DNA from: Moniliella sp. 'wahieum'
Lineage: Eukaryota
Assembly: GCA_003971905.1 (NCBI GenBank)
Contig: RSEE01000007.1
Coordinates: 124,001-188,000, forward strand
Reading direction: 5' to 3'
DNA length: 64,000 nt
Shown: one piece after another, positions 8,541 through 63,880 of the stretch
Layout of the letters: every line of letters starts with the position of its first letter
How positions within the stretch are numbered: position 1 is the first letter of the stretch
Notes under the pieces: generated by a model
The model's database searches: none
Told to the model about the DNA's origin: nothing
The model's input: only the letters and a program-made list of their open reading frames with translations
Position numbers and translations under genes: made by a program

Positions 8541-9730
8541 CTCAGTCACTCAGTTGAGTACCTGAGTACTGAGTGTACGCATGCTCTCAGACCTCAGATT
8601 CTCAACCTTGAACTTCAAGTTGGAGCTTCAAGCTTCAAGCTTCAAGTTTCAAGCTCAAGCTTCACGCTTTGCTAGTGCCTACTAGCGACTTGTGACTAAT
8701 GGCTATTGCATAGGATCACCGGGCACATCGCCAATAATTGGATCGATCGAAATGATCGATGATCGATGATGTATGATGCATGATGGAGAGTTCGGTGACC
8801 GGTGACCGGTAGACGCCGTTTCTACAAGTAGCATGAAAAAACCACTGTAGAGAGGGGGCCTGGCCTCAGGGTAGGGTGGTGTAAGGCCGGTACTGGTAAT
8901 GGGCCTTAGGGGACGCTAGGGGCTGCCAACAGGCGGTTCAGTCTGAATCTGAGCCCTGAGCGTCGGAGCGTCGGAGTGTCGGAGCGTCTGAGCTGTGAAT
9001 ACGTGAATGTGAGCTTGCAACACACATGCGGCAGTCTGGCGGCGGCAGCGGGGCCTGCGCATAGCCCGCCCTGAGGAGTTGCGTTCCTGTGGCCTCAGAC
9101 CCGAAGCCTGAGGGCGTGGGCTTGACGCGTGACGATGGTGGCTGAGGCTTGCGGCAGCGGAGATGTGGGTGGGATGTGGTGGGATGGGATGGGATGGGGT
9201 AGGATGGGTGATGCGTGGGGTGGCATTGCCGGTCACGTGTTGCATGGCGATCGGACGTTGGGCTGTGGGGATGCTGGGATGGATGATGGGGATGGATGAA
9301 GACGCGAGACCCTCTGCGATCTGACCGATCCGCGATGTGAGATGTGAGATCTGAGTGATCTCGGATCCATGATCTCGTGTGGGAAACCAGGGGGACTGAG
9401 TACTGAGGCGCTGCGTCTGAGGTCTGCGGCCGGCCATCCACCTTGCATCGTCGCAGCGCACGTCCCCATGCACCAGCTCTGGAGCGCGGTGGGGCGAGGA
9501 ACGGAGCGGGCTGCTGAGCGCTCGGCTGGCCAGTCCCTCTGTCTGAGGCCTTAATTGGTGTAAGACTTTTCCAGCAACCTTGGGGTCCGTAGGAGATGGC
9601 GGCCTCAGCGCCTCAGCGCTCAGCCTGAGCCGAGGCCGAGGCCTGAGGGCAAGTCTGACTAACACGTACTCAGTTACTCAGTACTCGGTACTCAGTCTGA
9701 GTACTCACGCTCGATATCACTCAGTACTAG
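8541..9730. repeat. Cluster of heptamer quasi-palindrome arrays
   Basis: (CTTCAAG)x3 8626-8646; TGA every 7 bp 8753-8783 (tgatcga tgatcga tgatgta tgatgca tga); (GGTGACC)x2 8794-8807; TGTGAGA/TCTGAG 9336-9356; CCTCAGC/GCTCAGC/CCTGAGG 9601-9648; ACTCAGT/ACTGAGT-type units 9667-9730. Confidence 0.9.
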
Positions 9731-10276
9731 GTACTGGACCCGTCTCGAAAGCCGGCGGCCATGCATCGTGGCCGAGCTGACCACCCCGCCCGTCTCTGGC
9801 CAAAAGCGTCTCCGTTTGCCCCCACGACCCCCTTGGGCGCTCTACGCCGCCACCTCGTCTCTCCTTCGCCTGCCCCTCCCCTGGCTTCGCTGGGCAACGC
9901 GCCTACACCAACCGCTCTCTTCTGCAGCAGCGCCATCTCGTTCTCAACGCGGCCCGTTCAGCAAACATCTTTCCTCTCCCGCAGTGCCGCCCATCCGTCC
10001 CGTCCGCATCCACCCCATTGCCGCTCCACCACCTGCCTTCATTCCGCTCCGGCCCCAGTGTCTCATTCATACCTTTCGTCTTCGCTTTGTCCCTGCCCAA
10101 ATGGCGTCCCAAGCGTGCTACTAGCCGTGGCGCCCCCACCCTTACCCAGCTACCGCAGCGCTCGTAGCGCTATTACCATCTCGCCTCAGTGGTGTTGCAG
10201 TGCAAACCCTGCTCCCATATCCATCTTGCTCGTTTCCCCCCCCATCCCTCTAATCCTCGCACTGCTCTTCTCCGTC

Positions 10277-12673
10277 ATGACGCTCGACCCCCCTTGCCCT
10301 TTTCTTCTCCGGCACACTTCAAGAAGCATTTACCGCCTGCCCACTCTGCTACCCCGCCCGCTCCTTCCTCACCTGCCCAACCGTACTCGCCGCCTCTTCC
10401 CGATCCCATCGAGCACACGTTTGCCCGGGTTCGCAAGTTCAGCGGAAAGATGCCTCCTCCCGTGTGTCCTCCCCCCCCCCTTTGCATGCCTCTCCTTGCC
10501 AGATCAAGACTAACCGTGCTGTCAGTCTATCTTTGCCACTCCAGGGCGCCGTAGTCGGAGCAAAAGCAGTGTCGAGTCGATGCGCGCTTTGTTGGCCCTC
10601 CAGCAGGAGGGCGCCGCGCCGTCGCTTCCGACACACTCTCCCGCCCTGGTTCACCTCAGCTGCTGCACCGGCCCGAGTTGGACTCGTTGCCTGGAACTTC
10701 GCGCACTGCGCCCACGGGGGCATCCCAGGGCAAGTCCGCGCAGTGGTTCCAGCGCCTCGCTCGATCCAAGGCTGGGACTGGGATCCGATTGGCCTCCAAT
10801 GACACGGTGATTGAACGACGCGATTCCGGCGATTCTTTCGAGTGTGCGGGCGCGAGCGAATTGATCGTCAAATGGACATTTTAGAGTCTCAACCCCTACG
10901 CCATCGTCATCGACACGCGATTTGCCTTGGCCAGCCAAGGATGGGTCCAGTTTTCCAGGCACCTTATCCATGGCCTTATCCCCCAGCCAGTCAGGTACTT
11001 CTACGCCCAAGGAAGAACGGGCACGCAAGCCCTCTACGCCCGCCACTAAGGAACGGCAGGGCATGCTCGATGGCGTGTTCCACTACCCACCATGCGCCGC
11101 GATGGCTCTGAACGTTCCGCCCGCTCTCGAATGGCATCCCACCATACATCTGCTAAGAGCGCTGTTACGGCCGACGATCTTGGCCGCCGGCCTATTGCTC
11201 ATATGAAGCAGAAGCGCAGCATGCCCAACCTAAGTCACGTTACCAAAAATAGCACCCTGCGCTCGCCCTCGTCCGACTAAAGCACGACCCTTTTTCATCT
11301 GTCGAGACTGCCGACAGCGCGCAGACACCTCATCTCCCGACTGGGACGTCGCGGACGATGCGCCTCGCCACTCGGCCGATTACTTGTCGAGCTTCCCATC
11401 CGCTGCACAAGATCCTGCCTCCCCGCTTTCCCACCGGTCCCAGGCGCGGCCTGTGGGGATGTATGGAGCGAGGGAGTGGATGGGGTACCCCATGCGCAAA
11501 GCCCAGAGCGCCAATCCTCGGCCAGAAATGAACTTTGTCTTCCCCCGCCCGCAGGTGACACCATTGGATGACGAAGAGACGCCGGTGTTTGGCACTTCAC
11601 TGAAAGTGAGTGACGGGTCTTCGCCCGTCCCATTTCCCTGTTCCCCTTTGCCCTTGGTTCAACCGTACCATCCTTCGGCTTCATCAACGGATCTATCGTT
11701 CAGGTCAATGCAGTCCTCCTCGCCCATACCGTCGTCCTCATCGCAAACGGAAGTGCGGCCGCTGATTTTCCGTCACCTCAACTCCAGTTACGTTGAGGAC
11801 AGCCCACGCAAGCCCCGTGCCCACGAGAAGGGGCACGCTCACTCCTTTCGGGAAGCAGCACGGGGACGTCACTTGTCATGACGGCGGACGAAGCGGAGCT
11901 GCCTGGCCGATTGGGGGCGTGCATGTCGCCATACGGTTCGCCACTGTCCACCTACCGTCCCTGGATCAATTCGAGCCAGAGAGGAGTGTAGACAGCCCTA
12001 GTATCACCCACAGTCCTCTAGGGAGTACTCGTACAACTCCTTGGACGTGGTCGAAAGTAGGGACCTCGGCATGCACGACAGCAGCCAGTTACCCCCCTAC
12101 GTTCCCCGTTCGCTCCGCTCCCTTCACTCCGGGGACGAGTGTTCAGAGAGCCCCATGGGCTCTTCAGCCTCTGTCTGCACCGCGCCCCAGCAGTGGTACC
12201 TCCTCCTCTGGTGCCTCATTCCTCTGGTGCTTTGGCCCTAGGAGAGACGGTGCGGAGCTTGGCTTTGGGTCTATCGGATGAATCTGACTCAGAAGGCCAG
12301 CAGCACGTGCTGACACCCAAGGCAAAAGGATGCAGGCCACCGCCTCCCTCCCCATCCCAACGCAATATCAGCTCTCGGCCTCGGCATGCCGACCCCCATC
12401 GACCGTTCAAGCTACCGCCAGCTCACTCACCACACCGACCCGTCCTTCACATTCCCTTGTCCTGCCATTCCGACCGCCGCTCTCCCCGTCCCACGCCTCC
12501 CGCCCCGGTATCCCCTCTCCCGACCGCGGCTCCGCATGCATACACCTTTCTCAGCTGAGGACAGCATCTCAATCAGGGAAGAGACGCACCTACGCTCTCC
12601 CTCGGAACCGGTATCGTCTCTTGTCGGGGCAGCCTCTTCTCCCGCCCGCCCAGCGGGCTCCCGAGTCGTTTGA
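10277..12673 (+). CDS. Hypothetical Ser/Pro-rich low-complexity protein (several frameshifts)
   Basis: Chain of overlapping plus-strand ORFs of similar composition (9761..10513, 10678..10884, 10922..11206, 11092..11280, 11384..11881, 12041..12558, 12386..12673) after a pyrimidine-rich leader. No domain recognised. Confidence 0.4.
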
Positions 12674-14030: not shown

Positions 14031-14233
14031 AGTCAGAGTTTGGCTGATCGATGATCTCGCTCCCATTTCCAATTTCTCCGTCCCGAACGTCTCGCTCCTT
14101 TTCCCTGTATACTTCACCCGCTTCGCAACTATGTCCTCTGTGCTCTCTTTTGCTTCTTCCCCGCGAACAATTGCTACATTCCTTTTGCCTAGTCTCGACT
14201 CTGGTCTCCCTCGCTTTAGCCCCGACTGTGACA
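14031..14233 (-). mobile_element. LTR copy (family A)
   Basis: Aligns by eye end to end with 43120..43410 and with the reverse complements of 44005..44185 and 62503..62685 (shared ctcgctcccatttccaattt, cgaacaattgctaca, tggtctccc, agccccgactgtgaca). No TSD seen. Confidence 0.8.
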
Positions 14234-14242
14234 GTATCGATT

Positions 14243-14544: not shown

Positions 14545-14830
14545 ATGATTCATCGATTATCGATCATCGATCACGTCCATCACAACCAGTCGGAGATCCT
14601 CGTTCAACTGAACGTTCAACGTTCAACGTTCAATGTACGTACTCTATTCAATATTCAACGTGTTCAACGTGTTCAACGTACGTTCAACTATATATATTAC
14701 GTTCAACGTTCACGTTCACGCGTTCAGTACCAGCAAGCTCAGTACGTTCAGTACTGCCAACTGAGATCGTACTGAGATTTGAGAGTACTAGACGCACTAC
14801 ACGCTGTGCTACTGAGTTGGTGCGTTCAGT
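14545..14830. repeat. Dense heptamer quasi-palindrome array (GATNATC, GTTCAAC, ACTGAG-type)
   Basis: catcgattatcgatcatcgatc at ~14551-14572; GTTCAAC at 14614-14627 and many more to ~14720; agtac/actgag units to ~14816. Confidence 0.9.
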
Positions 14831-15575: not shown

Positions 15576-15753
15576 GTTGCCACCAGGGGCCCAGCTGCGG
15601 AACAAAAGGGAAAACAGGAGAGAGAGAAGGCAACGGAGCTCCTAGGCTTGAGGAGGAACGCAAGGGACGTTGGCCAAAGCACGAGCCACCTGGTGGCTCA
15701 ACGCATGTGGTCTCCCTCGCTTATAGCGCTTAGCCTAAGCCCCGACTGTTACA
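15576..15753 (-). mobile_element. Deleted LTR-retrotransposon remnant: first ~46 bp of LTR joined to internal leader
   Basis: Minus strand starts TGTAACAGTCGGGGCT...GAGGGAGACCA (the LTR start). 15576..15686 matches 44193..44303 (gccaacgtccctt...ctcctca...taggag.tccgttg...gcccctggtggc), which follows the LTR at 44 kb. Confidence 0.7.
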
Positions 15754-16350
15754 TGTTACGTGTTCTTATTGCAGTTGGGAACAGACTGACTATAGACTGA
15801 CTAGTTCCTGTGTGACTAGTGACTAGTGACTAGTGACTGATGATTGATTTGTACTCGACCCTTGGTCAGGAAGATAGCACACAGCTGCGAGCGAGCAGCC
15901 AACAAGATCATCGCTACATCACTAACATCACTCTCACAACACTCATCTCAGACTGACGGCTCGGATCTGCGTGGGGCAAGGGCGCATTGGGCCAGCCTAA
16001 GGCCTAATAGCGTTTCCAACTTCCATCCCTGTTGGCCCGTCGAGAGCATGGCGGCCAATTAATGTATCCTTCGACCGTAGAGCGCAGGTCTGCATAGCGC
16101 TTAGTAGCTCGGCCTGCTTGGCGCTGAGGCTGAGTTCGGTACTTCGTACGAGGCCCGAGGCCTCTTAGGGCTTCGCATCTTGGGCCTTAGTGCCTCAGCG
16201 CCTCAGCCCGTAGGAACTTTGAACTTTTAGCGGCATGCGTTGATGATCGACCATCGATGATCGATCGGCCTGAACAGAACGTTGCACGGATTGATGATCA
16301 TCGATCATCGAACCTATCTGCATTCGTAAATCCTCCAGTTACATGTTACA
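15747..16350. repeat. Cluster of heptamer quasi-palindrome arrays
   Basis: TGTTACA-TGTTACG 15747-15760; (AGTGACT)x3 15818-15838; cctcagc units ~16190-16207; GATGATC/GATCATC ~16242-16310; gttacatgttaca ~16338-16350. Confidence 0.9.
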
Positions 16351-21209: not shown

Positions 21210-21450
21210 ACGTGACATGTTGTCCACGTTGAACGTGTTGAACGTTCAAGCATTCAAGTCAATCTTTCAACCTTCAAGCTTCCAGGGCAAGTTGAACGTT
21301 TAGATTCGATGGGCAGGTGAATGGGTGACCGGTGACCAAAGATCGGTGAGATCCCACTTGAATCATCGACGCCTCTCAGGGCCTCACCGCTCACCGGTCA
21401 TGTGACTGGCCACCAGCTGTGGTTTGGCGCTCAGACGCTCATGCATCATC
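21210..21450. repeat. Heptamer quasi-palindrome cluster in the ILV3/GSP1 divergent intergenic region
   Basis: cgtgacatgt; gttgaacgtgttgaacgttcaag; cttcaagctt; (GGTGACC)x2 ~21324-21337; ctcaccggtca; ctcatgcatcatc. Confidence 0.85.
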
Positions 21451-25071: not shown

Positions 25072-25092
25072 GGTCACCGGTCACCGGTCACC
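25072..25092. repeat. (GGTCACC)x3 upstream of NOG1
   Basis: Three perfect units read directly. Confidence 0.9.
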
Positions 25093-25340
25093 GTGACTTG
25101 AGGCCGGGAGGCCTCTTGACCGGCTGACCGATTTCCCGCTTTCGTCGCCCACGGCCTTATACACTTCCACGCCACCTGCTAATCGTCTTCGACGCCTGGG
25201 GGACACATTTAACAACAATCGTATGCCATACCAGTACTATACGGACTACAAGGGGAGGCAGCAGAAGATGACATATCATGCATGAGCGCCAAACGAAACG
25301 GAAGACAAGGTTGGATGAACGTAATTACTCTCTCGCAGAC

Positions 25341-33585: not shown

Positions 33586-33605
33586 TGATGCATGATGCAT
33601 GATGC
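33586..33605. repeat. (TGATGCA)x~3 in the divergent promoter between the Myb gene and VMA1
   Basis: tgatgcatgatgcatgatgc read directly. Confidence 0.9.
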
Positions 33606-43119: not shown

Positions 43120-43410
43120 TGTCATCAACATGGCTTGGCTGATCTCGCTCCCATTTCCAATTTCTTCGTCCTGATGAGCATCTCGCTCTTTCCCTGTTCT
43201 TCCGCTTCGCACCATGTTTTTCCGCTTCGCACCATTTCTTCCGCTTCGCCACCATTTCTTCCGCTTCGCACCATTTCTTCCGCTTCGCACCATATTCTTC
43301 CGCTTCGCACCATGTCTTCTGCTCTTGCTTCTCCCCCACGAACGATTGCTACATTCCTTGACCAATGTCTCTCAACTCTGGTCTCCCCCGCCTCAGCTCC
43401 GACCGTGACA
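43120..43410 (-). mobile_element. LTR copy (family A) with an internal minisatellite expansion
   Basis: TGTCA...GTGACA termini; homologous to the other copies; no TSD seen. Confidence 0.8.
43200..43313 (+). repeat. Minisatellite, six copies of a 19-20 bp unit TTCCGCTTCGCACCAT(TTC)
   Basis: Units start at 43200, 43220, 43239, 43259, 43278 and 43298; other LTR copies have one unit. Confidence 0.95.
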
Positions 43411-44004
43411 TCCGCCCATCCTATAAGCTTGACGCTTTTGACTGTTGTTCGACATGAAGATGCGCCGGTGGAAACCGGGGGAAAGATGGGGTCGACCTGC
43501 TCGGCCATAGCAGTTTGGACCTACAAATTAAGTAGAGCCAATGTCAAACGGAACTGTCTGGTCTAGGACCCTTCAGAGGAAGGGTTTTCTCGGACCTCAT
43601 TTTGAGAAGTAAATGAAGACGGCGAGCCCGGTGAGCTTAGTGGTGGTGGGCAGCAAAGCAAACACGGGTTTTTCTCTTCTTGGAGGCCTGGACAAAGTCC
43701 ATGGGAACAAAAGTGGAAGAAGACTGGCAATAAAAGGGAAATGGCCTCTGTCCAGTTGGTCAGCATACAGGCTGAGGTGGTCAGCGTGTGGATTGAGGTG
43801 GACCGTGCATCAATGCCAGGGAGACAGAAGGGACTGAAAAAAGTCGCCGAGGTCCGGATTTGTGCGTGGCACCCCCTTAGATGTGGCCGCCACACAAACA
43901 TCGCCAATGGAAGGGTCCAGATCCTGCGTGGCTCTGGGCGCAACGCCTGTGGTCCAGGGTGAAGTGTGATTTGGAGGACGCGAAAGAGCTGTCGAGCCAC
44001 GGCG

Positions 44005-45845: not shown

Positions 45846-47207
45846 TAGGGTGGGGGAAGTTCTGCTGAACGAAGCCTTTTTTACTCCCTGGCGTGGCAGG
45901 GCGCTGCACACCCTTTGGACTGCTATTACGCTCCCTCTGTCTTCCCTCTCAATACCGCCCAATCTCTTGAATCCTCCACCGTTTTGGACAAGGTCCGCCG
46001 AGTCCACATGAGCAGTGGAACATACCTCCCTTGACCAGCTCCCACGTACCCGCTACCCGCTTCGCAGTCTCCCCCCTCATGTGTTTTTCCTCAATATTAT
46101 GCGATGATGATAGAGAGTTTATCCACACTGTGGCATTGCCCTTCTCGTGTATTTTCGCATGCCATCGCTCCCTCTCATCCCCTTTCTTATACTACTACAG
46201 GAGGCACCTAGCGACCCTTTCCCATACTCCATGTTGATGTCGTCGACATTCCTTGCCACGGTGGCGGAGAACACAAGTGGGGGCTGGTTATGGTCGACAA
46301 CTTCACCCGGTACGTTATCTTCCTGCCTCTTTGCTCCAAAAAGTGAGGCCACTCGTTCACATCCCTATTCCGCAACCTGGTTATCCGCGAGCAACGTCAA
46401 CACCCTCATCGTTCCCTCCAGGTGGTCCGCTCCTACAATGCTCCCGAGTTGACCCCCGCCATGATGGAGGACGAAGAAGGTATCATCGCAACCGAAACGA
46501 CCAATCCAGGTTAAAACGTGCCTCATCCAGTGGTATTGCAGAGAGGGAGATCCGTTCCATCAAAAAGACAGCACAGCAGCGGGACGCTCAGTGGAATCCA
46601 CTCACAGGGTCGATACCCAACACCAAACATAAGTGAATAAGCGGCATCCTGGGCCTGCAAAGTCTGTCAGGCACAAAGTAGGTTGTGATGGAGGCGCAGT
46701 CAAGGAACCGCACCCCGCCACCCCGGCCATCTACTACAGGAACATCAGCATCCGATACGATAACCGCTTTGAAATTCGTCCTTGGCCGCAGAGGGTTGTG
46801 GCGGTGGCCGTGATAGTAGCAGCTGTCGTCATTTTCTTTATCTTTACCGTCGGGTTGCCGACAGATAGCAGTCCATGGCGACCTACTCAGACGGCAGCGC
46901 TTCTTGGCGCGCAGGCGTGGGGCAAGGACACGAACGAGGCCGGAGAACGACACTAGATGATGATGAGACCCAGGCCAACCACTCATTCTCGGTTTCAAAA
47001 CTATACACGTGACCCTAGCAGGGTCGGCGGCCATTCCTCTACCTTTCAACCCGCGGTCCTTGCGGCGGGCGCAATAAATGGCCTGTACAGTGCCATCATG
47101 CGTCAGCCCAACCCTACCTTGCGTCCTTCCCCCGCCGCCGCCGCCCCCCGCCGTAGTAGCCTGCTTGGCGCGCTGTTACTCCCATCGACCGACGCCGTCA
47201 AAGAACA

Positions 47208-47584
47208 ATGTCGCGCCTGTACGTCAAGGGTCGCATCCAGGGCCACCAGCGCTCGAAGCACGTCAGCCACGCCCACACCTCCCTCATCCAGATTGACGGT
47301 GTGACGAGCCAGGCTGAGGCCAAGTTTTACCTGGGCAAGCGTGTGGCCTACGTCTACAAGGGCACCAAGGAGATCCGTGGCACCAAGGTCCGCGTCATTT
47401 GGGGCCGCGTCACCCGCCCCCACGGCAACTCGGGTGTGGTTCGCGCTAAGTTTGCTACCAACATTCCCCCGCTGCCTTTGGCAAGAGCGTGCGCATCATG
47501 CTCTACCCCTCGAACAGTATGTTGTTTTCCTTTTTTGCACGAAAGAGTCATACTAATTCCCCCGCTTTACCTCCGTCAGTCTAA
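47208..47584 (+). CDS. RPL33: 60S ribosomal protein eL33 (L33/L35a)
   Basis: MSRLYVKG...[12 protein letters not shown]...[22 protein letters not shown]...VRIMLYPSN | intron 47517..47579 | I*. Apparent 1-bp deletion near 47472. Confidence 0.95.
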
Positions 47585-48343
47585 ACATTGATTGTACAAC
47601 ACGTTCGCCCCACCTCGAATGGCTTTGCCGCACCACCCCAAAAAATTCCCATTAGCCCCTGTGCTCTCGAGACGCAGTAGTCTCCCGTTCCTCCCAGGGG
47701 TGGTAATGGCGCTGCTCATGCTTCATGCATTCTCTTGGATGAGGTCGCTGGCCTGTCCGTATGCGCTCTACTGTCTGGGTGACATGGGTCTCGTTGATTG
47801 ATAGGGATTAGAAACAAAACCATCCATGCGTGTCGTGAGCCGTCGCTTTGGTGCCCCGACAGAGCATCGCCCATCGACCCTTCTGTAGAATGGGGCCGCC
47901 CCAGAGTGGACAGATCAGATATCAATAGCTGAATAATATCGCGGACAATGCAATTCAGGGACAGGTACAGCCCAGGAGAAGGGCGGATCTTCATCCCGTG
48001 AAAGCAATGGACTTTGGGGTCCAACAAAGGGTACTTATGTATCACCTGCCCAGTCGAGGTCTACGGCTTCAAGACCACACCGGATCCGAACATACTAGCG
48101 TATGAGCATTTTGAGAGGCATAGCGCCGGAGGTACATGGCGAGGCATGAGGAAAGAGGGGGCCATCAGTATTTGGCCCCGGAGTTGTAAACACCACGTCC
48201 ACAAGCCACCCCCTCTAATCTGGAGGCAATGATCAGGCCAGGGGTGAGACAAGCCCAGTGGTTGGGTGGACGAGGCTCCCACCTTCTCCCAGCTGCACAG
48301 GAAGGATGAAGGGACATGCAGGCCGGGAATGGGGCAACATCGC

Positions 48344-48938
48344 TTAGAACTTCATAGCGTGGGGCTTGTCCGAGTTGCTGAGCGAGAAGGTCGTGGCAAG
48401 GTACTTGAGGTGGGTGGGTCCCGCCTTCTTGACGGCCGCAATGACAGCCTGGTCAATTGCCTTCTGGTCAGCAACCTTGGCAGCGGGGTGGGCCGCCTTG
48501 TTGGCCGGGTCCAGGAAGAAGGCCTGCTCGGGCTTGGGGCCACGGGTCTTTTCCTGGGCAAAGTAGGCGTCCGTCACGTTCTCAGGCACCTTCACGTCGC
48601 TCACATCGATCTTCGTCGAGGTAGCAATCACGTAGGCCTGGTTCACGCGACGGAGGGGCACGCCGTTCACCTTGAAGGGGCCAGTGACGAGGAGAAGGCC
48701 CGAAGCGAGCTGCTTCAGGAAAACAACACGCTTGCCGGCAAAGCGCCCAGCAAGGAGAATGAGCACAGTGCCAGGCGTGATGCTAGCACGCAGCTTGGAG
48801 GTTGTTGATCTTGCGCGTCACCTTGGGCTGAGGGGCGTCGACGGCAGGGTAGTACTTGTGCGCCCGCTGCGCCGGAAGCGTGCGAGTGCCCTTGCCGAAC
48901 GGCTTGGTCTTGGGAGCAGCAGCGTTGACGGCAGCCAT
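48344..48938 (-). CDS. RPL6: 60S ribosomal protein eL6
   Basis: KYYPA...LRASITPGTVLILLAGRFAGKRVVFLKQL...LLVTGPFKVNGVPLRRVNQAYVIATS...DKPHAMKF*. Frameshift near 48800; apparent intron just upstream of the ATG (gtgagt 49021, ctaac branch, aag 48945). Confidence 0.95.
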
Positions 48939-51370
48939 TGCGTTCTTTGGAAGGGAGATGGGGGGAAGCAAAGTTAGCGTCGGCTACGTCGGCAGGGACT
49001 GCTTGTAGTGCTCTTACTCACCAATCGAGCCTTGATGGTCTTGCGGTTAGTGGGGCGTCCAGAGCGAGGACAGCGGACACCACCGCAGCGGGGAAGACAA
49101 GAGTAGGGTTGGCCTTCAAAATATTTAGCGTACACACTTGTGCAGTGCGGACGTCCCGATAATTGTGCCGCAGCACTACACGGCCGGAGTGCAGGCATTG
49201 ACTCGAGGGATATTGACCGGGGCCATGCGCACGTGACCCGTGCTGGCTGGCTTCCTGGTTCAAACGTTGAATCATCCGCCGGCATCACGTGATGCGTCGC
49301 CTTGGGGCGGTGGTCCCAGCCCACGCCGATTGGCTGCTACGATCCCAATTAAACCTGGAGCTCACCTCCTTTCCAAGGGCGTAGCAGGGGCAGGGGCTCT
49401 ATGAATCTTGGACATAGAAGCAGTGATGACTTCATCGCTCTTCAGCAGTAGTCGTGCCTGCGATGACTCGGTGTATCGTCGCGAGGATAAAAAAACGCAT
49501 GCTCCCTACATATTACAACCCTTTTTTTCGAAGAGAAGAAGCACACTTTGTCAGGTATCCAGCAATCTGTGGAATAGCTTCTGGCCGTATATCATCACTC
49601 TATCAGAAGTTGAACCTCTTGAGCCACGGGGTTGCTCGTGCGTTTGTCTAAAAGGGTTTTTCAGTCCCTCCTCAGGCCTCAGATCTATAGGAGAGAGTTC
49701 TACTGTTTTCTCGATCGCTTTTTTGTACGTGCTTTCCTTGCCCTGCAGCCAGACCGGAGGGGGAGCAATTGCGCGTGGCTGCTTACTCATGTCCTTCTGT
49801 AGGTGTTGCTAGTTGGCTTATACCATAACCGTCACCATCGATGCAATTGATTCACCTTCGAAGGCGTTCAAGACTCTCCACAGGTAATAGTGATAACATC
49901 TCGGCACCTTTGTGTGCGTTGCGTGTTGAGTCATGTTAGATGGCTATAATAGTACCGTAGTTTGCCACACACGTTCAGAACGCTCTTCTGTTCACTCTCT
50001 GTGACAGAGTGTGGGTGGCCACATATAGCGATCAGTCTGTTTTTGGTCGATCTCCAGCAGCTTCAACGTCTTCAACCTATATCAAAAAGCTACATCATCT
50101 CTCGTAACGTGCGTAACGCGTAATGCACGTAAGGTATCGTATCAACAAGTCGATGTAGGTGGGGAAGATAAAAACGTGATAAACAGAAACGCGTTCGCCA
50201 CATGTAGCTCCGCAGACATATTTCGGCAGAAGATGACATCTGTGTGGTGAAGTAGTGAGATGTGACGATAGAACATCAGCAGCCGTGGCGCATATGTGTT
50301 TCGTGTTCCCTCTCTCCGACTCTACGCCTCCGCGATATTTGGCCACACAACCACACCCCACTGATGCGAGTCATCCAACATGATGCCATAGGCGCCTGTG
50401 GACGATGATGTAGAACATGAGCGATGATCGCATCTGTAACCGGACCCTCTATAGGTCAGTGCGGGAGCGACAATGGGGTCGAGAGATTGGGTCCAAAACG
50501 CACAGAGAGTTATAAGGAGAGGCCTGCCGACGGATCGGCGGGCCTCATCACTAGACCGCGGGATCCACATTTGAAATTTGCGCGATGTCGTTGGTAAACG
50601 AGATGCACATGGCCAGGTGATTCAGACCAGAGCACACCAGATACTTGCTGCTACGTGTCTGCGTTATGTGCCTACGCCGCGTCCCAGGCAACCGTCCCAA
50701 CCCCGGCGCGGTCGGAGATGCTGCAACCATGCCTACACCTCCGGACCCCCCGAACCCACACGGCCACTATCGCCCGTGCTGCCTTTTTACCGGCCTGCCA
50801 CTCCCCACTCTCGGCCCCCTTTTGATTCGGCTGCCCAATTAAACGCCCCCACGTGCCCTGCCCGCGTCCCGTGACAATCAATTGCGGTTGCCTGCGCAGC
50901 AGTTGCACGGCAGAAGAGGAGCTGCAATGGTCGATGGCGCGATGAGATCGTGAGAGACGGATGAAGAGCGATGCCGCGTTGGAGAGCGGTCGGTGTCATG
51001 GTAGCGCCGATATTTGGGGCCTCGCAGCAGCGCTCTGTACCAGTCTGTACCAGTCTATACCAGTCTTAGATATCCCCCCCTATCCCCCCGACGGCCTTAT
51101 AGAGCAGCGGGGAACAAGGAACCGCGCACGCGCAAACTTACCGGCCTGCGGATAACAGGCCGGCGTGTGGTCAGCTCAGCAGTGCCAACGGCCTCTGACT
51201 AGTGACTGCGCCCAGGTACTAAATCAAATAACAGTAGCAACCGAATAAACCCCCATGTGGCGGTGGGGAGGTTAAAAGACATCTGTTGCCCCTCTCTCAG
51301 ATCTCAACCCCCCACACTATTCCTACCCTACCACCCCATCCACCTCCATCTCTACTACCTACCCAAGTTC

Positions 51371-51604
51371 ATGTCCATACTCGCTGGCCGACCTTGTAGG
51401 TCCCTCCCCTTTCCCTTGCTGCTTTTCCACACACTCGGCGCACAGACCAAAGGGGGACTGACACGCAACTGCGCCTCTGCAGGCAACCTGATGGCGCTTG
51501 GACCTTACGTCCGCTGCCCCTTTTGCGATAACATTATTGTCAAGCTGAACGAGTGCACATCTTGCCACCATTCACTCGTGGGGGTCCGATGCAACGAGCC
51601 ATAA
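51371..51604 (+). CDS. Possible small spliced Cys-rich peptide (48 aa, two CxxC motifs)
   Basis: ATG 51371; intron gtaggt 51396, ctgac branch, cag 51482; product MSILAGRPCNLMALGPYVRCPFCDNIIVKLNECTSCHHSLVGVRCNEP*. Confidence 0.3.
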   Translation: MSILAGRPCRSLPFPLLLFHTLGAQTKGGLTRNCASAGNLMALGPYVRCPFCDNIIVKLNECTSCHHSLVGVRCNEP

Positions 51605-52783
51605 GTATGGCCTGCCGTCCCCCCTTTCCCCATTCCCATCGGTCCTGCTCTCCGTGTATAATACGTTCCTCTCTCTCTCAATTCTCACAATTCTCTTCTC
51701 TTCGTCAACGTCAATATCTGCCTGTTCATACCCGCACCATTTCCCTCCCATCCAATACCCCCCCGCCCCGCTTCCGTCGGGTCTGTGGCCATTTGTTATC
51801 CCTTGCAGCGGGACAACGGTCCCATTCCATATCCAGTATCTCAGCATTCATAATGAGAGGGGCCTGGGGTCCCGGATCATACAAGTCAGGAGTCAGAGCT
51901 AGTCAGGAGTCAGGCCTCTCGTCAACGCGTCAGGCTAGCACCATGCGATTTTACATTTGCATGTGATCGGATAGTCGCGTCCTCTAATTGTGCTTGCCAC
52001 CCCAAGAGGAACCATCGCGCATTCATATCAGGTACCTACCTAACGTAGACATTCATACTTGCGTCTCTGTTGGCTCAGGTGTACTCAGGCAAAATGTCAC
52101 GCCCTGTGGCTCTTGCAGCGGCATGAACGTAACGCGTAAACGTACCAGAACCATGAGCTGAAAGAATGGGGGTTAGGGCGAAGCACTAGACAAGGCCATC
52201 AATGGCTGAGGGCGATGAATCGGTCACACAAATGAGAGCCCAGAACCGCGATTGTCCGCTAACTGAAAAGTAGCTACGCTAAAACAAGCTAAGGACGATT
52301 GCACTATTAAGGGAAGATAGGAAACAGTCAGAGATAGCTTATTCTAAGCTCCTGACGCTATTAGTCCGACGGTGTGCAACCGGGAGAGAGAGGAAGGAAG
52401 GAGGGGGAAAGGCGCGCAAGGGATAACCAGCCCAAGGTGCTCGGGAGGCGAAACAATGAGGAGACTTCCGCATATCAGTGGCTTGGCCGCAAAAGGCAAT
52501 GGCATGTGAGCGTACGATCAGCCATACTCTAACATGAACAGCGTGAACATCGAACTCCGTGTTGTCGCGACGCAGAGTACTGGTGAGGTCAACGTTGCCT
52601 TCATATGTAAGTCATCCATCGTGCATCATACATCTTTGCATTATCATGGAAGATGGGTTTGCCTCGTATAGAACGTGTAGATTGACCCTACGTGCATCTG
52701 GAGTTCTGGACTCTCCCGTAGTCTCCGAGTTGAGCATGAACGTCCTCAATACTGAACATTGGGTCAACGTTCAAGAGAGACTT

Positions 52784-54222
52784 TCAAAAGGAAAAGTCGA
52801 GGAGCTTGCCCTGCTGCGCGCTCAAGCGGGCCAGCTCGAGGGTGCGAATGGCAATCGCCACCTGCTCCACCTTGACGGCCTGAACAGCGTCGATGGCGGC
52901 ATTGCGCGCGGCCACCTCGGTCCCCGGAAGCGCGTTGGCTGCAGCCACCGTCTGGGCCAGATTGCGGTATAGGTCCATGTACCGTCCCTGCAGCTGCGGC
53001 ACTTCCTCCTGCTCCAGCGCCAGGGGAGCCGCACGGTCCTGAATGGGCTCGGTGGCAAAGTTGCGCGTGCGCGCGGGACCGGCCAAGAGGGTGAGCGTGG
53101 CGCGATCTTCGTGCCGACCAAAGGTATCGGCGCGTACGTCAGCATGGGCCTTGAGCTGCGCTTCCTGTGGGTCCAGACCATAGGTCAAAAAGGACCCCCG
53201 CGACCCATACACCTTGAACCGTAGCATCTTCTCGTTCGTGAACGGGGCCAAGACCGAGGCAGTGAGGCGGCAGTGCAGCCCAGCAGCACGGTGCCTGCCG
53301 CGGGCGAGTCGGCCGGAAGCGGGGCGCCAGGAGGATAAAAGAGTGCACCTCGAACCCATCGTCCACCTCGGGCGACTGCTGTCCTCGCGAGTTACGCAGC
53401 AGACCCAAGACCGACTGCGGCGGACCAAACAGGCTGATGGCTACCCACCGAGCAACGCATCAGTATCGCCGCAGTTTGTGAGCAGAGAAGGACGTACCTT
53501 GGTCAACGAGGTGGCTGCCCAGATCCCACAGCATCCCACCTCCCTGTGCTGGCAGCACCTCTTCTCTCCACCCCCCTTAGACAGGGGCCGGTATCGGTCA
53601 AAGTGCGACTCGAAAAAGAGAGGCACACCAATGGTCTGCGGCGCACGGGGGTACCCGGCGATCGAAAGGGATGAGGGCGCGTTCTTCACTGCATCTGCAG
53701 GTAGGAGCGATTGGAGCGTAAGAAAGTCGGCATCAAAACGGCGGTCTAGCACGGCACAAAACCGGAAAACAAGTTAGCTCGATCGCTCAATCATCTCGCC
53801 CTGGAGGATAACAACGAGAACGTACTTTGGTAGGTGTAGCAGACCACTCCATGCTGCTCTGCCACCGCCTGAAGTGTCTTGACATCTTCCGAGCTCAGTG
53901 CCAACGGCTTCTCACACAGCACGTGGCAGCCATGCTCCATAGCCTTCTTGGCCGTGGCAAAGTGGAGGCTGTTGGTGATGGTAATAACCACCACTCCACC
54001 TACAGGCAACCGGTTGGGACCCTGAAAGATGTCGTCAATGGTAGGGTGGATGTGGGCGGAGGGGAAGGCTTGGCTGGCCGAGGGCTGGGAAGAACCCGGG
54101 CGCTGCTGGATGGAGTGCAGGACAAACTGCGGCAAGGCCAACAGGAAGGGCAGGTGGAATGTGTGAGCGGAGCTGCCGAATCCCACGAGCGTGACGGGGA
54201 TGGGAGCCGATGAGGAGGACAT
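52784..54222 (-). CDS. Gfo/Idh/MocA-family NAD(P)-dependent oxidoreductase
   Basis: VTLVGFGSSAHTFHLP, HVLCEKP, Y-Q-(N)-RRFDADFLT across an intron ~53746-53825, FESHFDRYRP, GSFLTYGLDPQEAQLK. Frameshifted. Confidence 0.88.
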
Positions 54223-54404: not shown

Positions 54405-55503
54405 TAGCCTCTCAGCCTCTCAGCGCTCAGGCTGAGCAGCAAGGCTGCCTCTGTCGAGGCGGTTGACTAGTAGCGTAGGACCGAATAGTTGCAAGAATGG
54501 CGCAGGGCAGTGGCAGAGCACAAGGGGTCCGTGCGGAGCGGAGCCATCGGTGGGTGAGGACGCGGGACGAGGAGTGGGTCACCGGTCACCGGAGAGAGCA
54601 CTCGAAATGTGGCTGTCGCTTCGGGCTTAACGTTTAACGTTTAACACGCTTAACGTTAAGCTTAACGCTTAACGCGGGGAGAGCTACGAGCTTCCAACGA
54701 GTTAACAAAAGGACCTCTGCAGGTGCACGAGAAGGGAACAATCAGAGTTCGTTTCTTGTAAGCCCCTCAGGCCTAAGGCTTGATATTCGCCCAATCTTGA
54801 GTGCAACCGGGCAGAGAAGGAAGGAGGAGGACGAAGCGTGGCGTTATGTGATGGATTCGGGGTGCGGGGGTCGCGCGACACTGCACGCTTTAGTAGTTCT
54901 GCCTAAGCTTCAAGCTCCAAGCTTCACAACACACCCCAACACTGGTGACCACCAGTCTCTCCGCCAAACTCGTGCTCCTTCAGTACTGAGCTCAGTGGTA
55001 ACGGGGATCAGTCCGATGTTCGATTGATTCCCGGAATTCGGACGATCGCGAGAACCGTGAACGCTCAACGTACCGCGTACACGTTCAACGGTGACATCGC
55101 TTCTCGCAATTGCTTCACCTCTTCGAATCCCGCTGGGGAATTGAACATGAACCTGAACGGCAGGCTCGGCAGTGTGAACGTTGTAAACAGCGAGTAGATT
55201 CGCCCTGCCATGCAACAATGGCCAGCGCCCCCAACGTGGCAATGGGGACGACTACCACGGCAACGAGCAACGACTAGTAACTAGTGACTAGCAACGCCCC
55301 CTCCCTACTGACAGCTTGAAGGGCTGGCACAGCCTGAGGCTGCCGAGGGCTTATTAGACGAAGGCAGTATGCCCTCCCCGCAAGGCAAAGGAAGAGAGGG
55401 GCATGGGGCACCCGGCACTGTTGCTACATATGTACAACCTTGTATGCGAGTGTGTGGTATGCAGTAAGGTACGAAGCCCCGGTCTCGGGTAACATGTAAC
55501 ATG
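54405..55503. repeat. Cluster of heptamer quasi-palindrome arrays
   Basis: ctcagcgctcag ~54419-54430; (GGTCACC)x2 54577-54590; (GTTTAAC)x2 54632-54645 with ttaac/ttaag units to 54675; aagcttcaagc ~54905-54925; AGTAACT-AGTGACT 55276-55289; GGTAACA-TGTAACA 55488-55501. Confidence 0.85.
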
Positions 55504-55590
55504 AGAGAGGAAAGGGCGTTGCTCGCTGAGCGCTGAGGGGCTTACTGCGCTAGGCTCCCTTCCCGAGAGTGGGGAAGCTCAGGCTGGGGC

Positions 55591-56048: not shown

Positions 56049-56140
56049 GCTTGGGTGGGACTAGGAGGGTAAAGGTGGAGGTGGAGTAGGGCGATGGGAG
56101 AAGGTGGGGGGCGAGAAGAGCCCGCCACGCAGCTTTGCGG

Positions 56141-56160
56141 ATGATGCATGATGCATGATG
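56141..56160. repeat. (ATGATGC)x~3 upstream of RFA3
   Basis: atgatgcatgatgcatgatg read directly. Confidence 0.85.
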
Positions 56161-57140
56161 AGCGCACACCGGCCACCGCCGCGTCGCGTCGCGTCGTATC
56201 GCGTCCACTTCCGCTTGTGCCTTTTCCGCTGTGCGCACGCGGCCGCGTCAGGCTCCGTTTCGCTGCTTTCGGTGGCGCATCTCACAGCAACAATGGTCAC
56301 GTGCTGCCCTTTCGGCGTTAAGCTTTAAGTGGTTACGCGGCCGGTTACGTCAGATCTAAACATAGGGCTCGTCACGCGTCATGCGTCGCACGTCACGCAT
56401 CACACGTCAGCGCTTCAGGGAGCATCCAGGGCAGGGGAAAGGGGCTGTGACACGTGACATGTGATTCTGACTTCCTGTGACTCAAACCAGCCACCGTATT
56501 AAGCCACCGTGCCTAGCTAGTCACATGCACAATGGCTAGTGACTTCAACGTAGCGACTCGGGAAGAGTAGAGGGTTAGAGACAACTTCTGCGGATCTGCA
56601 ACCGTCTGGAACAATACTGGACACAAAACGACATGCAGCTACTGCAACAAAACACACACGCCGCACTCCCAAACGGCCGAAAATGGCAGTAAAGAATGTC
56701 CCATATGGAAACCCTGAGTTCAACATGGACGCGCCCTTCGCTTTGCACATGGTACCCACGCACCCAGCGCCGCCGGCTCGCTATCCAGGTGATCAGGGGC
56801 GGGAGTACGCCGGACAAGCAAATGCAGTATGCCCTCTGACAAGGAGATGAGAAGAGGGGCGTCGAGTACAGAAAATGCGGACACGAACCAAGAAAGGAAA
56901 AGTGAAGCCTAAAAGTGGTGGAGGAAACCTGGCTTGAGCGAGGCACGGAAGTCCGTACGCTCCCATCGCGTGCCGTATACATGCCCCGACAGACTGGGGC
57001 GGGAGTAAGAAGAAAGTGGATGGGGAAGGCACGGGAGCAGGTAAGCAAAGCGTGAGGGAGAGGATGGAGGTACGAAAGGACAGGGAAAGGGAAAGGGAAC
57101 GAAAGGTGAAGGGAGAAGGGGAGGCATATGGGTGGGGGCC

Positions 57141-59417: not shown

Positions 59418-61660
59418 AGTAACTAGTAACTAGCCACTAGCACGCGCAACGGCTCACAGATCACAGATCCCGTGCCACCATGTCACCGTCAGCGGCGATC
59501 GATGATGTGCCTCTCAGCGTATCAGCACTACCGAGGGCAGGCGGTGGGCGTTACGTTGAAGGGTCGATGATCGCAATGATCGGTGATCGATGAATCTTAA
59601 TCGATACCGGTAAGCGCCTGTCGCTGGGGCGTCGGACGCCTGGATCTGGCCACCGGTCACTGGTTCCCGTTAGGCGTGCTGGGACCCGCTTGGAGCTGCT
59701 CCCACCGAGCCTGGCTAGCGCGCTGAGATCAGCCTCAGGCCTGAGCCTGAGCCTCAGGGCCCCAGTATCGGTCATGCGCGAGGCCGACTGCCGCCGGTCA
59801 CCGGTCACAGTCACTAGTCAGTATACGTACCCAGTACTCCGTCGCTAGTCACCTAGTCACTCCTGTGACTGTCTGGAGTTTTCCTAGCCTGCCCTAGCCA
59901 ATCCCACAGCAGGTGCAGCTCTGCTAGCTAGTCCTTGCCAACTCCAGCGAACCAGTACCGCTAGCCAGGCCGCGCCGGCCGGCAGAGGCGCTGCAGAGCG
60001 CTGCCTGGCCTGCTGGAAGTCAAACCACCAGGGCCTGCCAGGACACGCCCCCATGCCTACGGTTTATCCGGGGTCTTTGTCGCTGGTGCCCCGACACTCA
60101 TCCTATGGGGAGCCGCAGTCCGGTTTCAAATCTACCGACGCAGTTGGCGCCGTCCACCAGCTTAACGCCGGTACCCCCGTCTGCTCTGGCTGACCACCGA
60201 AAATGCATCCTCGTCATGATCATCGAACATCGATCATCGCTCGAAGCGCTAATTCGAAGACCAGGCAGAGAAAACGTTGCAGAACCTGTGGAAACAGGCC
60301 GAGCCACACTGCCTCTGTGCCCGCTCCAGCTCCGCGGACGCGGACGGCCTGCCACCGCGGTGTTCCTGTTTCTATCGCCCCGTCGGGCGCAGGTGGCACA
60401 GGAAAGACCATGGGCACAACCAACAACAAGGGTGCTGGGTGCTAGGGGCTAGGGCTGCATCTTTCAGGATGATTCGGTGATCAGCGATTGCGATGCATGA
60501 TATGTGACGTGGGAAAGCATGATGCGTTGCAAGAAATCCGCTACCGCATTGCTCAGCCTGGGCGCTCAGCCACCCAGTGGGCATGTGCGTACACCGCCTC
60601 AGTACCTCAGTACCACTTGCTCACTAGATTCCCACTACTAGTGCATGTGATGGTACTCATGCGAGGCAGGCACTAGTCACTAGTCACTCAATACGAGTCG
60701 CTCACTACTCGGGTCGCATGCCACATGTCGCGTTTAACGTTTGCCAGTCTTGGCCTTGCCTTGGGCTGCAAGCGCTGCACATTCCTTTCTGCGGGATCCT
60801 TTTTTCCGGCTGACTGGAAACGCTGGACGTTGCGCAAACCCAATAGGGCCGCGATCCACTCTATCCACTCCGCACTCCGTGGACCAGGGACCCATGTTGC
60901 CCTGGCCGCTTTGCGGCGCCGCCAGCGCGGTCACCATCCCCGGTCACCGGTCACCGGTTGCACACCCTCCGTGGCCTCCGTGCATGCGCATGCGCGCCCC
61001 GCTTGTCCCCGCACAAGAAATGAGGCTTTTCGGCTGCAGAGCTTGAGCGCCACAGGGCTTCAAGCTCCAGCGCCTTCCACGTCATCTCATCATCCGCGCT
61101 GAGGCCTGCTGAGGTCGGCTGAGGCACTGCTGAGGAACTGCTGACGCACGGTGGGTTAAGCTCCTGAGGCTCAGGCCTGTTCATGTAAATTCGATTGCAT
61201 TGCTTCGCCGCCCCCCCCCCGAGCTTCGTCCAGAAATGCCTCCGATTATCAATTACTACGGTACTCCATCAGCTTCCTGCCACGATGCCCCCCTCCCTTA
61301 TACCATCGACCAACACGCCATTTCCATTGGCTACTGTCTTTTTAGCTCTGGATGTCGGGTATGGGGGCGCAGGGGTCTGGGATCTGAGGCCGCGTATTCC
61401 GAGCTCGCTATTCGTGGCCTCGCCGCCCTTACTAGTTACCAGTTACTAATAGTGACTGAAGGCACATCTGCTTTGGAAAAGCCAATATTGGCGTGTTGCC
61501 TTTTTAGACGCTCCACTCGCACTTTGCAATTGGTGAGCCCAGTGACCGGTGACCAGTGACCGTCGCTCACGGTGATGAGCCTCATCACTGAGCCACAGTG
61601 CGTTTGGCCAAAAAGAGGACCTTCAGTCCTCCTTACAGGCCTCATGCCTCGGGCCTAGGT
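59418..61660. repeat. Long MFS upstream region dense in heptamer quasi-palindrome arrays
   Basis: agtaactagtaactag 59418-59433; gatgatc ~59565-59592; ctcaggcctgag ~59733-59758; ggtcaccggtcacagtcactagtca ~59796-59820; ctagtcactagtcact ~60673-60688; (GGTCACC)x2 60942-60955; agtgaccggtgaccagtgacc 61541-61561. Confidence 0.9.
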
Positions 61661-62502: not shown

Positions 62503-62685
62503 TGTAACAGTAGGGCTAAACGAAGAGGGAGACCAAGGTCCTGTCAGAGGCGGGGGGAAAGGCAAGATCGTTCGTGGGAGGAAACAGAAGGCATCAGGCA
62601 GAGAACAGAAGCAAAAGGGAAGGGAAGAGCGAGAGACACAGGATGCAGAATTGGAAATTGGAGCGAGCTTAGTCATTCGGTGACA
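62503..62685 (+). mobile_element. Solo LTR (183 bp) with perfect 5-bp target-site duplication
   Basis: TGTAACA...GTGACA termini flanked on both sides by CTCGT (62498-62502 and 62686-62690); homologous to family A. Confidence 0.9.
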
Positions 62686-63739
62686 CTCGTTCTCCCTATG
62701 TTCTCCATGAGTGGACATCTTCTCCTGATCTGACGTGCCACACCATGTGTGCCACACCTTCCGGAAGCTTGACTCCCTTGTTGGCTTTCCTCGTCCTCTC
62801 GAGTTCGTCATTTTGTGGTCCACCTCTATCCCTAATCCACAACAAAGACCTACATTGGTGCCATCTTCAAAAGCTCATTCTCCCAATGGGCTTGTCTTCC
62901 CCATATCTTTTTCCGAGTAGGATTGCTCATAGGCACGCTGCCACATATCCCCAAGTCTGTGTCTATACACAGCCTTTCCACACAAGTCGACGCTTCTTCT
63001 GCGGAGTGTACTAATAGGTCTCACCTTGTCCCCAGCATCATGTTCGGATTCATCTCCGAACAGAAAAGGACAAACTCCCGTGAGTGTGCTTTCCATGCTC
63101 TCATAGATTTGGGCAATTCCGAGAGACGCCAACAACCAACACATGCCGGATGAGCGGGTCGCGGTTTAAACGGAGCGTTACTTTGCCCCAGCCATAAAAG
63201 CACTGTCAATGATATGGTTGGTGAGTGGATGGCGGATGTTTCGGCATTCACATCCCCAGCGCCTTTTCAAGAGGGCTATAGAGAGGGAGGGTAAACAGGT
63301 GAAGAGCTTTGTATGTACATTGCATTCGGGCCCGAAAAGCCACATAGAATTCATACCGTCGGCATTCCTGCGCAACACGCAACTCATCTTCAGTTCTCTG
63401 TCAACAATTTACCGCGTACCCACTCTGGACTGTCGATGAGATGTCTTGCCCACTATAGTCTCCGTGTTGTTCCCTAAGAGAAGGTGTAGACAACTAATAT
63501 ACTAATCTAGCCAGAGTTCATTGTGTCAAGTGCCAGGGACTGGAAGGCATCTCACTACTGTGTGCAGAGGTCCGCAAAATCCACACACCTTCATATTTTC
63601 CTGCTGGACGTCGGAGACTGTGTTGGGGGGGAAAGGGCGTGGGAAGGACGCGCAGCATGGACCACACGTAGAGGGGAGTGCGCCGATGCTTTTGATTGGC
63701 GAGAGCACAGAAGGAGGATGAGGAGCCAGACTGGTATGG

Positions 63740-63880
63740 CCATCGATCGTCATGCATTTTGATGCAGTATGGTGCGACGGATCCAGATCTGGTTGATGAG
63801 ATGATCATCGAGATCATATCGACGGTATCGATCACCGGGGTGGGAGGGCCAGGTGACCGGTGATGCAGGTGATGTGATGT
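63740..63880. repeat. Heptamer quasi-palindrome cluster
   Basis: catcgatcgtcatgcat; gatgatcatcgagatcatatcga; ggtgaccggtgatgcaggtga. Confidence 0.7.

Follow-up and report, generated by a model that had tools for sequence, protein, structure and literature searches.

The window analysed here, a 64-kb stretch of Moniliella sp. 'wahieum' (contig RSEE01000007.1, positions 124,001-188,000, forward strand), contains many short tandem arrays whose 7-bp units differ in sequence but obey a single rule of period 7, dyad symmetry within the unit and a T-N-A centre (T at position 3, A at position 5), with free arms (yz-TNA-z'y'). An initial annotation had put this rule forward from 13 named unit types, all 13 of which we found at or within ~10 nt of the positions it gave (window coordinates throughout), although CG-TAA-CG near 50103 extends over only 13 nt and GC-TCA-GC near 14364 over only ~11 nt. 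The rule proved to be real and stronger than first stated. The regularity is confirmed beyond chance at overwhelming significance, and it points to a mode of repeat formation or retention that has not been described. As the initial annotation had supposed, we found no description of this class of arrays in fungi among open-access papers and preprints, figures not being covered by that search.

Tandem Repeats Finder (TRF) assigned period 7 to 47 of its 126 rows for the window. Perfect arrays, defined as period-k tandem runs of at least two copies, numbered 92 at period 5, 48 at period 6, 52 at period 7, 11 at period 8, 5 at period 9 and 1 at period 10. Markov simulations of order 1, 3 and 5 from the window's own statistics (40 each) produced on average only 3.5, 3.5 and 4.4 period-7 arrays, respectively, with maxima of 8, 7 and 10. 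For 27 of the 52 observed arrays some rotation of the unit is a 7-bp odd palindrome, compared with simulated means of 0.4, 0.4 and 0.6 (maxima of 3, 2 and 3). All 27 are centred on T-N-A, a centre that base composition alone would give to ~18% of palindromic units by our own arithmetic. Among perfect arrays of at least 17 nt, 14 of 16 are T-N-A palindromes (counted from the array table), and the units of the remaining two, CCACCGG and GATGTGA, are each one substitution away from such a palindrome. Of all 52 arrays, 27 have a T-N-A palindrome as their unit, and 12, 10 and 3 lie at a distance of one, two and three from the nearest such palindrome, versus null proportions of 3%, 23%, 59% and 15%, so that unit sequence is constrained beyond composition (T-N-A palindromes in 27/52 units versus 3% under the null).

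The centre was examined in a looser set of palindromic period-7 runs of at least 11 nt, with 30 order-3 simulations as the null. The initial annotation had called for comparison with other centres and other periods, and both comparisons bear it out. Only T-N-A is in excess (93 observed versus 3.1 expected), whereas A-N-T (6 versus 3.0), C-N-G (6 versus 5.3) and G-N-C (7 versus 7.5) are at chance. The 93 T-N-A fragments form 74 clusters, cover 1262 nt and span positions 2960 to 63863; those at 2960, 3108 and 3339 precede the point at which the initial annotation had begun. Palindromic period-5 units are not enriched (18 versus 12-16 expected), and none of the five period-9 arrays is palindromic. 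Arrays of period 8 (11 versus ~1 expected) and period 9 (5 versus ~0.2 expected) nearly all hold a z-T[C/G]A-z' pentamer plus a longer, non-symmetric spacer, and they seem to derive from heptamer units by insertion of 1-2 bp.

The arms are as varied as the centre is fixed. All 16 possible arm pairs occur among the 93 fragments, where at least 12 of the 16 corresponding junction palindromes had been claimed, and 25 of the 32 strand-collapsed units are in use. The centre base is G in 38 fragments, C in 34, A in 11 and T in 10, without strand bias. Adjoining palindromic heptamers that share their arms (23 pairs) agree in the centre base in 20 cases, differ without being complementary in 3 and are complementary in none, indicating that the repeats are direct and not disguised inverted repeats. 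Single T-N-A heptamer palindromes outside arrays are at chance (137 versus 123-144 expected in 50,481 unmasked nt), although they number 284 at all positions of the window (versus ~171-221 expected); the excess therefore lies in the duplication and not in the word. Single A-N-T, C-N-G and G-N-C heptamers are as common as T-N-A ones or commoner, yet their arrays are at chance. The view that one transcription-factor motif would not be this free in sequence is thus upheld by the range of units and arm pairs and by the chance frequency of single sites. As a separate observation on the arms, the preferred unit junction is CpG (ACCGGT, ATCGAT, AACGTT or AGCGCT), with y = G in ~18 of the 27 perfect arrays, and a GpC junction occurs in ~7 of the 27 (both hand tallies).

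Placement, growth and occurrence elsewhere

We used 11.3 kb of Pfam-supported reading frames, drawn from the 150 longest reading frames of the window, as the coding reference. None of the 27 perfect arrays overlaps these frames (4.8 expected under uniform placement), and only 1 of the 74 clusters does (13.1 expected). Arrays lie ~10-460 bp beyond the 5' ends of six of the frames (IlvD/Ras, NOG1, V-ATPase A, HMG, GFO/IDH and Rfa3), and those in the intergenic region between IlvD and the Ras-family gene lie 232-455 bp before the Ras-family ATG; all such distances are measured from reading-frame 5' ends or ATGs and not from transcription starts. A codon-usage gene map of the window was too weak for classifying intergenic regions and was not used, and a comparison of the window with Rfam gave no matches.

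Imperfect arrays reach ~12 copies according to TRF, and the units beside perfect cores are mostly one-substitution variants. At 8745-8785, for example, the units are graded from AATGATC through GATGATC, GATGATG and TATGATG to CATGATG. Asymmetric units can still expand, as seen in the 12 copies of CCACCGG and in the 8- and 9-mers. In one case copy number can be compared between paralogues: the copy at 14 kb has TGATCGATGATC where those at 43.1 and 44.2 kb have TGATC, so that they differ by precisely one unit of 7 bp, in an unpolarised direction. There is thus reasonable support for arrays gaining and losing whole units in the manner of any microsatellite. What is left to explain is why only T-N-A palindromic units get started or kept.

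The host of the window is an Agaricomycete-like basidiomycete, judging from an IlvD fragment whose closest matches, at 77-80% identity, are Agaricomycete proteins such as those of Heliocybe, Fibroporia and Serendipita. We also scanned metagenome contigs for three copies of GGTSACC, which returned at least 122 stretches (loci L001-L121). Most contigs among the matches listed are GC-rich, densely coding and bacteria-like, and the 121 loci listed do not overlap the window outside the IlvD gene. Seven contigs among these matches, 66.5 kb in total, are eukaryote-like; they include one Zn2Cys6 domain, which is fungal, and one S10 carboxypeptidase. With the seed arrays dropped, these seven contigs hold 11 T-N-A arrays of at least 12 nt (1.3 expected), versus 2, 0 and 1 arrays for the other three centres (1.1, 1.7 and 0.8 expected). 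Two of the 11 adjoin the seed and six are other units (CTTGAAG twice, GATCATC, TTTGAAA, ACTCAGT and CTTAAAG). In one contig (L036) two arrays, one of GGTGACC and one of CTTGAAG / AAGCTTGA, precede a gene start by ~500-650 bp; the 69 residues encoded at that gene start gave no match in a search. For loci L079 and L042 the leads went no further than a eukaryotic, fungal-like source. The density of T-N-A arrays is far higher in the window than in the seven contigs. The T-N-A bias in these fungal-like contigs indicates that the class is not confined to one assembly or one sequencing technology. In 46 bacteria-like loci, long heptamer arrays (at least 17 nt) are likewise in excess and are non-palindromic (55 versus 1.8 expected); one of the loci, L066, alone has 16 perfect period-7 arrays.

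How the arrays might arise

We propose that the arrays are products of a mutational process and not copies of one regulatory motif. Neither unbiased slippage nor one motif is sufficient. We rank a staggered cut first among the explanations, followed by structure-assisted slippage, by selected promoter elements and, last, by an artefact. The best reading, which we hold with low confidence, is that the arrays stem from a symmetric 7-bp staggered-cut duplication with later slippage. A two-fold symmetric protein would recognise a dyad-symmetric heptamer centred on T-N-A and nick the two strands 7 bp apart, and fill-in and re-joining would then leave a direct 7-bp duplication by the same chemistry that makes target-site duplications. 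From two copies onwards, replication slippage or unequal exchange would add or remove whole units, a step that the copy-number differences described above support. Later point substitutions and 1-2-bp insertions would yield variant units, including the 8- and 9-mers, some of which might re-expand. Seven extra bases would disrupt a reading frame and introduce a stop codon on one strand, so that arrays would survive only outside coding sequence and accumulate in intergenic DNA on the promoter side of genes.

Staggered cutting of a symmetric site over 7 bp would account for the period, the direct duplication, the sameness of the centre base between neighbours and the base-specific centre. The lack of enrichment of period-5 and period-9 palindromes indicates a fixed 7-bp geometry that suits a protein better than DNA folding, and the 20 identical and no complementary centre bases are what is expected of a direct duplication and not of an inverted one. 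The use of 16 arm pairs and 25 of 32 units means that no single sequence-specific binding motif fits. To our knowledge, the Kyakuja group of KDZ transposons is the only source of 7-bp staggered cuts in Agaricomycetes. Kyakuja elements from five orders of Agaricomycotina are described with 7-bp target-site duplications (PMC12730594), and a second report gives 8-bp duplications for KDZ elements of Cryptococcus (bioRxiv 10.1101/2024.08.15.608186). The period of the arrays equals the duplication length of Kyakuja, and the host class is Agaricomycete-like, a likeness of length and class.

Several observations weigh against a staggered cut. The perfect dyad symmetry of each site is left unexplained by it. 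Known transposase preferences for palindromes hold at the level of the consensus only, and independent half-sites would not give perfect complementarity site by site: by our own arithmetic, the observed arm frequencies would make ~18% of units palindromic, against the 14 of 16 found at 17 nt or more. No transposase family matched any of the 150 longest reading frames of the window, and an inverted-repeat search of the window returned no heptamer-flanked element, only a duplicated promoter and exon. Arrays end at all unit phases and not at unit boundaries, as fresh duplications would; among arrays of 14-16 nt (n = 13), the start coincides with the first unit base in 5, versus 1.9 expected for random phase, and longer arrays show all phases. 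Finally, 74 clusters in 64 kb would require very many events that left no element behind. The transposase footprints suggested by the initial annotation are conceivable solely in the form of a 7-bp staggered-cut target duplication, for which the window offers no direct evidence.

The staggered-cut reading can be extended, speculatively, beyond the window. Some Agaricomycetes might run an as yet unrecognised genome-wide process in which a two-fold symmetric nuclease or transposase, of Kyakuja type or a domesticated relative, duplicates any T-N-A dyad heptamer, so that promoter-side DNA keeps being seeded with self-complementary arrays and slippage expands them, with the arrays possibly co-opted as a general element of promoter architecture; we consider this possible but doubtful. 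The poly(dA:dT) tracts that yeasts use as a general promoter-architecture element would be a parallel for such co-opted arrays.

Structure-assisted slippage without any enzyme ranks second and is likewise doubtful as the whole explanation. Self-complementary slip-outs would fold, last longer or escape loop repair, and so out-expand other units, and the fields of arrays between genes would evolve where they stand. Strict complementarity between arms of free sequence is a hallmark of intrastrand pairing, folding is better in 8 of 10 real arrays than in shuffled versions of them (z at or below -2.3), and growth and decay resemble ordinary microsatellite dynamics. Neighbouring arrays also appear related by descent (GATGATC to CATGATG via intermediates, GTTCAAC to ATTCAAT), and units that have lost their symmetry expand too. 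Nevertheless, when all 256 palindromic heptamers were folded as single strands of 2-4 copies with DNA parameters, the mean hairpin energy for three copies was -3.2 kcal/mol for T-N-A, -3.4 for A-N-T, -5.2 for C-N-G and -5.6 for G-N-C. T-N-A thus folds worst on average and is ~30-fold enriched, whereas C-N-G and G-N-C fold best and are at chance, which speaks against the initial suggestion of structural selection insofar as it would act through hairpin stability. A one-unit slip-out would, moreover, pair only 2 bp around a 3-nt loop, and palindromic arrays of period 5 and period 9 should not then be at chance or absent (0/5). Structure-assisted slippage explains neither why the centre is T-N-A nor why the period is strictly 7. 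The earlier argument that ordinary slippage would not select such units accordingly stands for unbiased slippage, which fails given that the other centres are at chance, but not for slippage as a mode of growth, which may well contribute.

It is less probable, and in our view unlikely, that the arrays are selected promoter elements, bound by a homodimeric factor or a chromatin or architecture protein or acting through a self-complementary DNA or RNA shape, with slippage supplying the variation. The position of arrays beyond the 5' ends of six supported frames and their avoidance of coding sequence would fit such a role, as would the constancy of the pentamer z-TSA-z' while spacers and period (6-10) vary. 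A tandem 8-nt palindrome, GGACGTCC, upstream of the atromentin synthetase genes of Boletales offers a precedent (bioRxiv 10.1101/2020.03.25.008516). However, coding avoidance is expected of any 7-bp insertion, and the arrays draw on 25 units and every arm pair instead of one or a few motifs. Single sites are not enriched and the centre base has no strand bias. At period 7 the 2-nt spacer must itself be self-complementary, which a factor that binds the pentamer would not need.

An assembly or sequencing artefact is very improbable, as the arrays are diverse, lie outside Pfam-supported frames, carry point variants typical of real evolution, differ in one case by exactly one unit between diverged paralogues and recur as a class in independent metagenome assemblies, and palindromic heptamers are not the product of any sequencing error mode known to us.

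Other candidates were tried and rejected. Nick or hairpin repair and strand switching, which the initial annotation had considered, predict complementary centre bases in neighbouring units, as do inverted duplication, fold-back priming and hairpin-opening (P-nucleotide) repair, and such centres occur in 0 of 23 pairs. A Tc1/mariner-type footprint, or a 3-bp T-N-A duplication with 2+2 bases from element ends, would need fixed termini, whereas 16 arm pairs are found. Birth at three-base T-N-A direct repeats or from 4-bp duplications fails because short arrays are not overrepresented at the phases expected from it. Among palindromic centres T-N-A alone yields TGA or TAA on one strand, and a period of 7 passes through every frame; selection for stop codons is nevertheless rejected because the centre base favours neither strand (G 38, C 34) and varies within a single promoter. 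Sites of the Zn-cluster or bZIP type fit only units with a CG or ACGT junction, and a dispersed repeat or miniature inverted-repeat transposable element does not fit arrays of the same unit that share no flanks.

The arrays along the window

The longest array, ~12 copies of CCACCGG at 8412-8493 (TRF), is one substitution (T to C) from GGTCACC. Beyond it lie an imperfect CT-TCA-AG array of ~10 copies at 8601-8669 (TRF; perfect core at 8624-8646), adjoining GA-TGA-TC, CA-TGA-TG and GG-TGA-CC arrays at 8752-8810, with intermediates that differ solely in the outer bases, and an imperfect TC-TGA-GA array of ~6 copies at 9313-9355 (TRF). Positions 9602-9686 hold fragments of GCTCAGC, CCTGAGG and ACTCAGT together with an 8-mer array of GCCTCAGC (9602-9619). 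GATGATC occurs in 1.7 copies (12 nt) at 14045-14056, where the paralogue copies at 43.1 kb and 44.2 kb are 7 bp shorter, and GA-TNA-TC at 14552-14573 varies in its centre base between units (T, then C). GT-TCA-AC and AT-TCA-AT arrays at 14611-14712 include a derived 9-mer array of TTCAACGTG (14654-14679); AG-TGA-CT follows in 3.9 perfect copies at 15812-15838, and GA-TGA-TC and GA-TCA-TC arrays share 16253-16311.

The divergent promoter of IlvD and the Ras-family gene (21226-21449) contains two copies of the 9-mer GTTGAACGT, CTTCAAG, two copies of GGTGACC and CATCATG. GG-TCA-CC is present in 3.1 copies at 25072-25093, ~150 bp outside the NOG1 frame on its 5' side, and CA-TGA-TG in 2.9 copies at 33586-33605, upstream of the V-ATPase A frame. 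Upstream of the HMG-box gene, 40127-40225 holds 2.1 copies of GT-TGA-AC, 3.1 copies of the 8-mer GCGCTGAG and 2.2 copies of its inverted form GCGCTCAG. The three copies of GCGCTGAG (40141-40165) and two of the reverse-complement GCGCTCAG (40208-40225) are ~40 bp apart and form the sole inverted array pair in the window, which resembles bacterial repeat-armed hairpins.

A dense run follows, with CT-TAA-AG at 41171-41193 (3.3 copies), imperfect CC-TCA-GG at 41317-41371 (~7.7 copies; TRF), imperfect AC-TGA-GT at 41507-41555 (~6.7 copies; TRF), fragments of CT-TGA-AG and CA-TGA-TG at 42002-42060, CA-TGA-TG at 42341-42373 (~4 copies; TRF) and, at 42669-42737, 9-mer arrays of CTAGTGACC and TAGTGACCG and then GGTGACC and GA-TCA-TC arrays. 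The ~10-kb region 44000-54000, which includes the two ribosomal-protein genes RPL35A and RPL6, differs from its flanks in that perfect T-N-A arrays (two copies or more) are absent and short fragments few.

Further along, GG-TCA-CC occurs in 2.3 copies at 54577-54592, upstream of the GFO/IDH oxidoreductase frame, followed by an imperfect GT-TTA-AC / GC-TTA-AC array of ~7.3 copies at 54625-54675 (TRF). At 55273-55291 AG-TAA-CT gives way to AG-TGA-CT, with the same arms and a different centre base, and TG-TAA-CA and GC-TGA-GC arrays lie at 55489-55537. The 2.9 copies of CA-TGA-TG at 56141-56160 are ~93-112 bp upstream of the Rfa3 start codon. The remaining arrays are imperfect CG-TCA-CG at 56370-56409 (~5.7 copies; TRF), AG-TAA-CT at 59418-59433 (2.3 copies), GG-TCA-CC and then an AG-TCA-CT fragment at 59794-59820, AG-TCA-CT at 60671-60688 (2.6 copies), imperfect GG-TCA-CC at 60928-60958 (~4.6 copies; TRF) and a GG-TGA-CC-type array at 61542-61562 (3 copies, 85% match; TRF).

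The window also carries duplicated segments. Three copies of a promoter and first-exon segment (ATG and a Ser/Ala-rich start), 77-87% identical, lie at 43129-43416 (+), 44006-44184 (-) and 14032-14232 (+), and two of these copies face each other, 684 bp apart. A further paralogous match joins 15576-15695 (+) and 44184-44303 (-), so that the duplicated sub-segments are contiguous at the 44-kb locus and 1.3 kb apart at the 14-15-kb locus. Directly upstream of the ATG of one of these duplicated gene starts, 43197-43323 is a 20-bp tandem repeat of ~6.5 copies (91% match), of which the paralogues have a single copy.

Significance and comparison with known systems

Should the rule extend to the whole genome, much of the non-coding DNA in this fungus would have been written by one symmetric process that is blind to sequence and specific for shape, and at the density of the window there would be tens of thousands of arrays, a figure that is an extrapolation and not a count. 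Such a process would be a new mutational signature in eukaryotes, and it could link the 7-bp target duplications of Kyakuja/KDZ elements, which are poorly understood transposons, with the unexplained preference for heptamer repeats across microbes. Because they go no further than hexamers, standard microsatellite surveys would overlook heptamer arrays. The arrays would serve as highly polymorphic markers, and they are positioned where promoter tuning is possible.

The 7-bp target duplications of transposons resemble the arrays in that 7 bp are directly duplicated, that the site has two-fold symmetry and, for some examples from bacteria and plants, that its centre is T-N-A; open non-coding DNA is the usual place of such targets. 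The hot spot of Tn10/IS10 is GCTNAGC, PIF has a 9-bp palindromic target around a TTA/TAA duplication, and the target consensus of Galileo is palindromic. Galileo of Drosophila is reported to make 7-bp duplications (PMC2775673). However, transposon targets have a consensus with defined bases and two copies, whereas the arrays use every arm pair with perfect symmetry, reach ~12 copies and accompany no element or transposase in the window.

Unstable tandem repeats in yeast promoters, reportedly described by Vinces and colleagues in 2009, and microsatellites in general are similar to the arrays in their short head-to-tail units, promoter-side position and changes by whole units. They follow no rule of dyad or centre and do not favour heptamers, in contrast to the tightly constrained units of the window. 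Bacterial heptamer repeats share the preference for period 7, the intergenic position and the capacity to form hairpins; an example is the GGGAATC repeat of Xanthomonas, as reported by Rehm et al. 2015 (PMC4692102). Their units are mostly non-palindromic and gain symmetry from inverted pairs of arrays, whereas in the window the unit itself is palindromic and the host is a fungus.

In Boletales, GGACGTCC is repeated twice in tandem 90-130 bp upstream of atromentin synthetase genes and is read as the site of a dimeric factor (bioRxiv 10.1101/2020.03.25.008516). It resembles the arrays as a short tandem palindrome, from an Agaricomycete, ~100 bp upstream of a start codon. The Boletales motif is nevertheless a single 8-bp even palindrome that is tied to one gene family and conserved across species, whereas the window holds 25 different 7-bp odd palindromes, all centred on T-N-A, at most of its intergenic regions.

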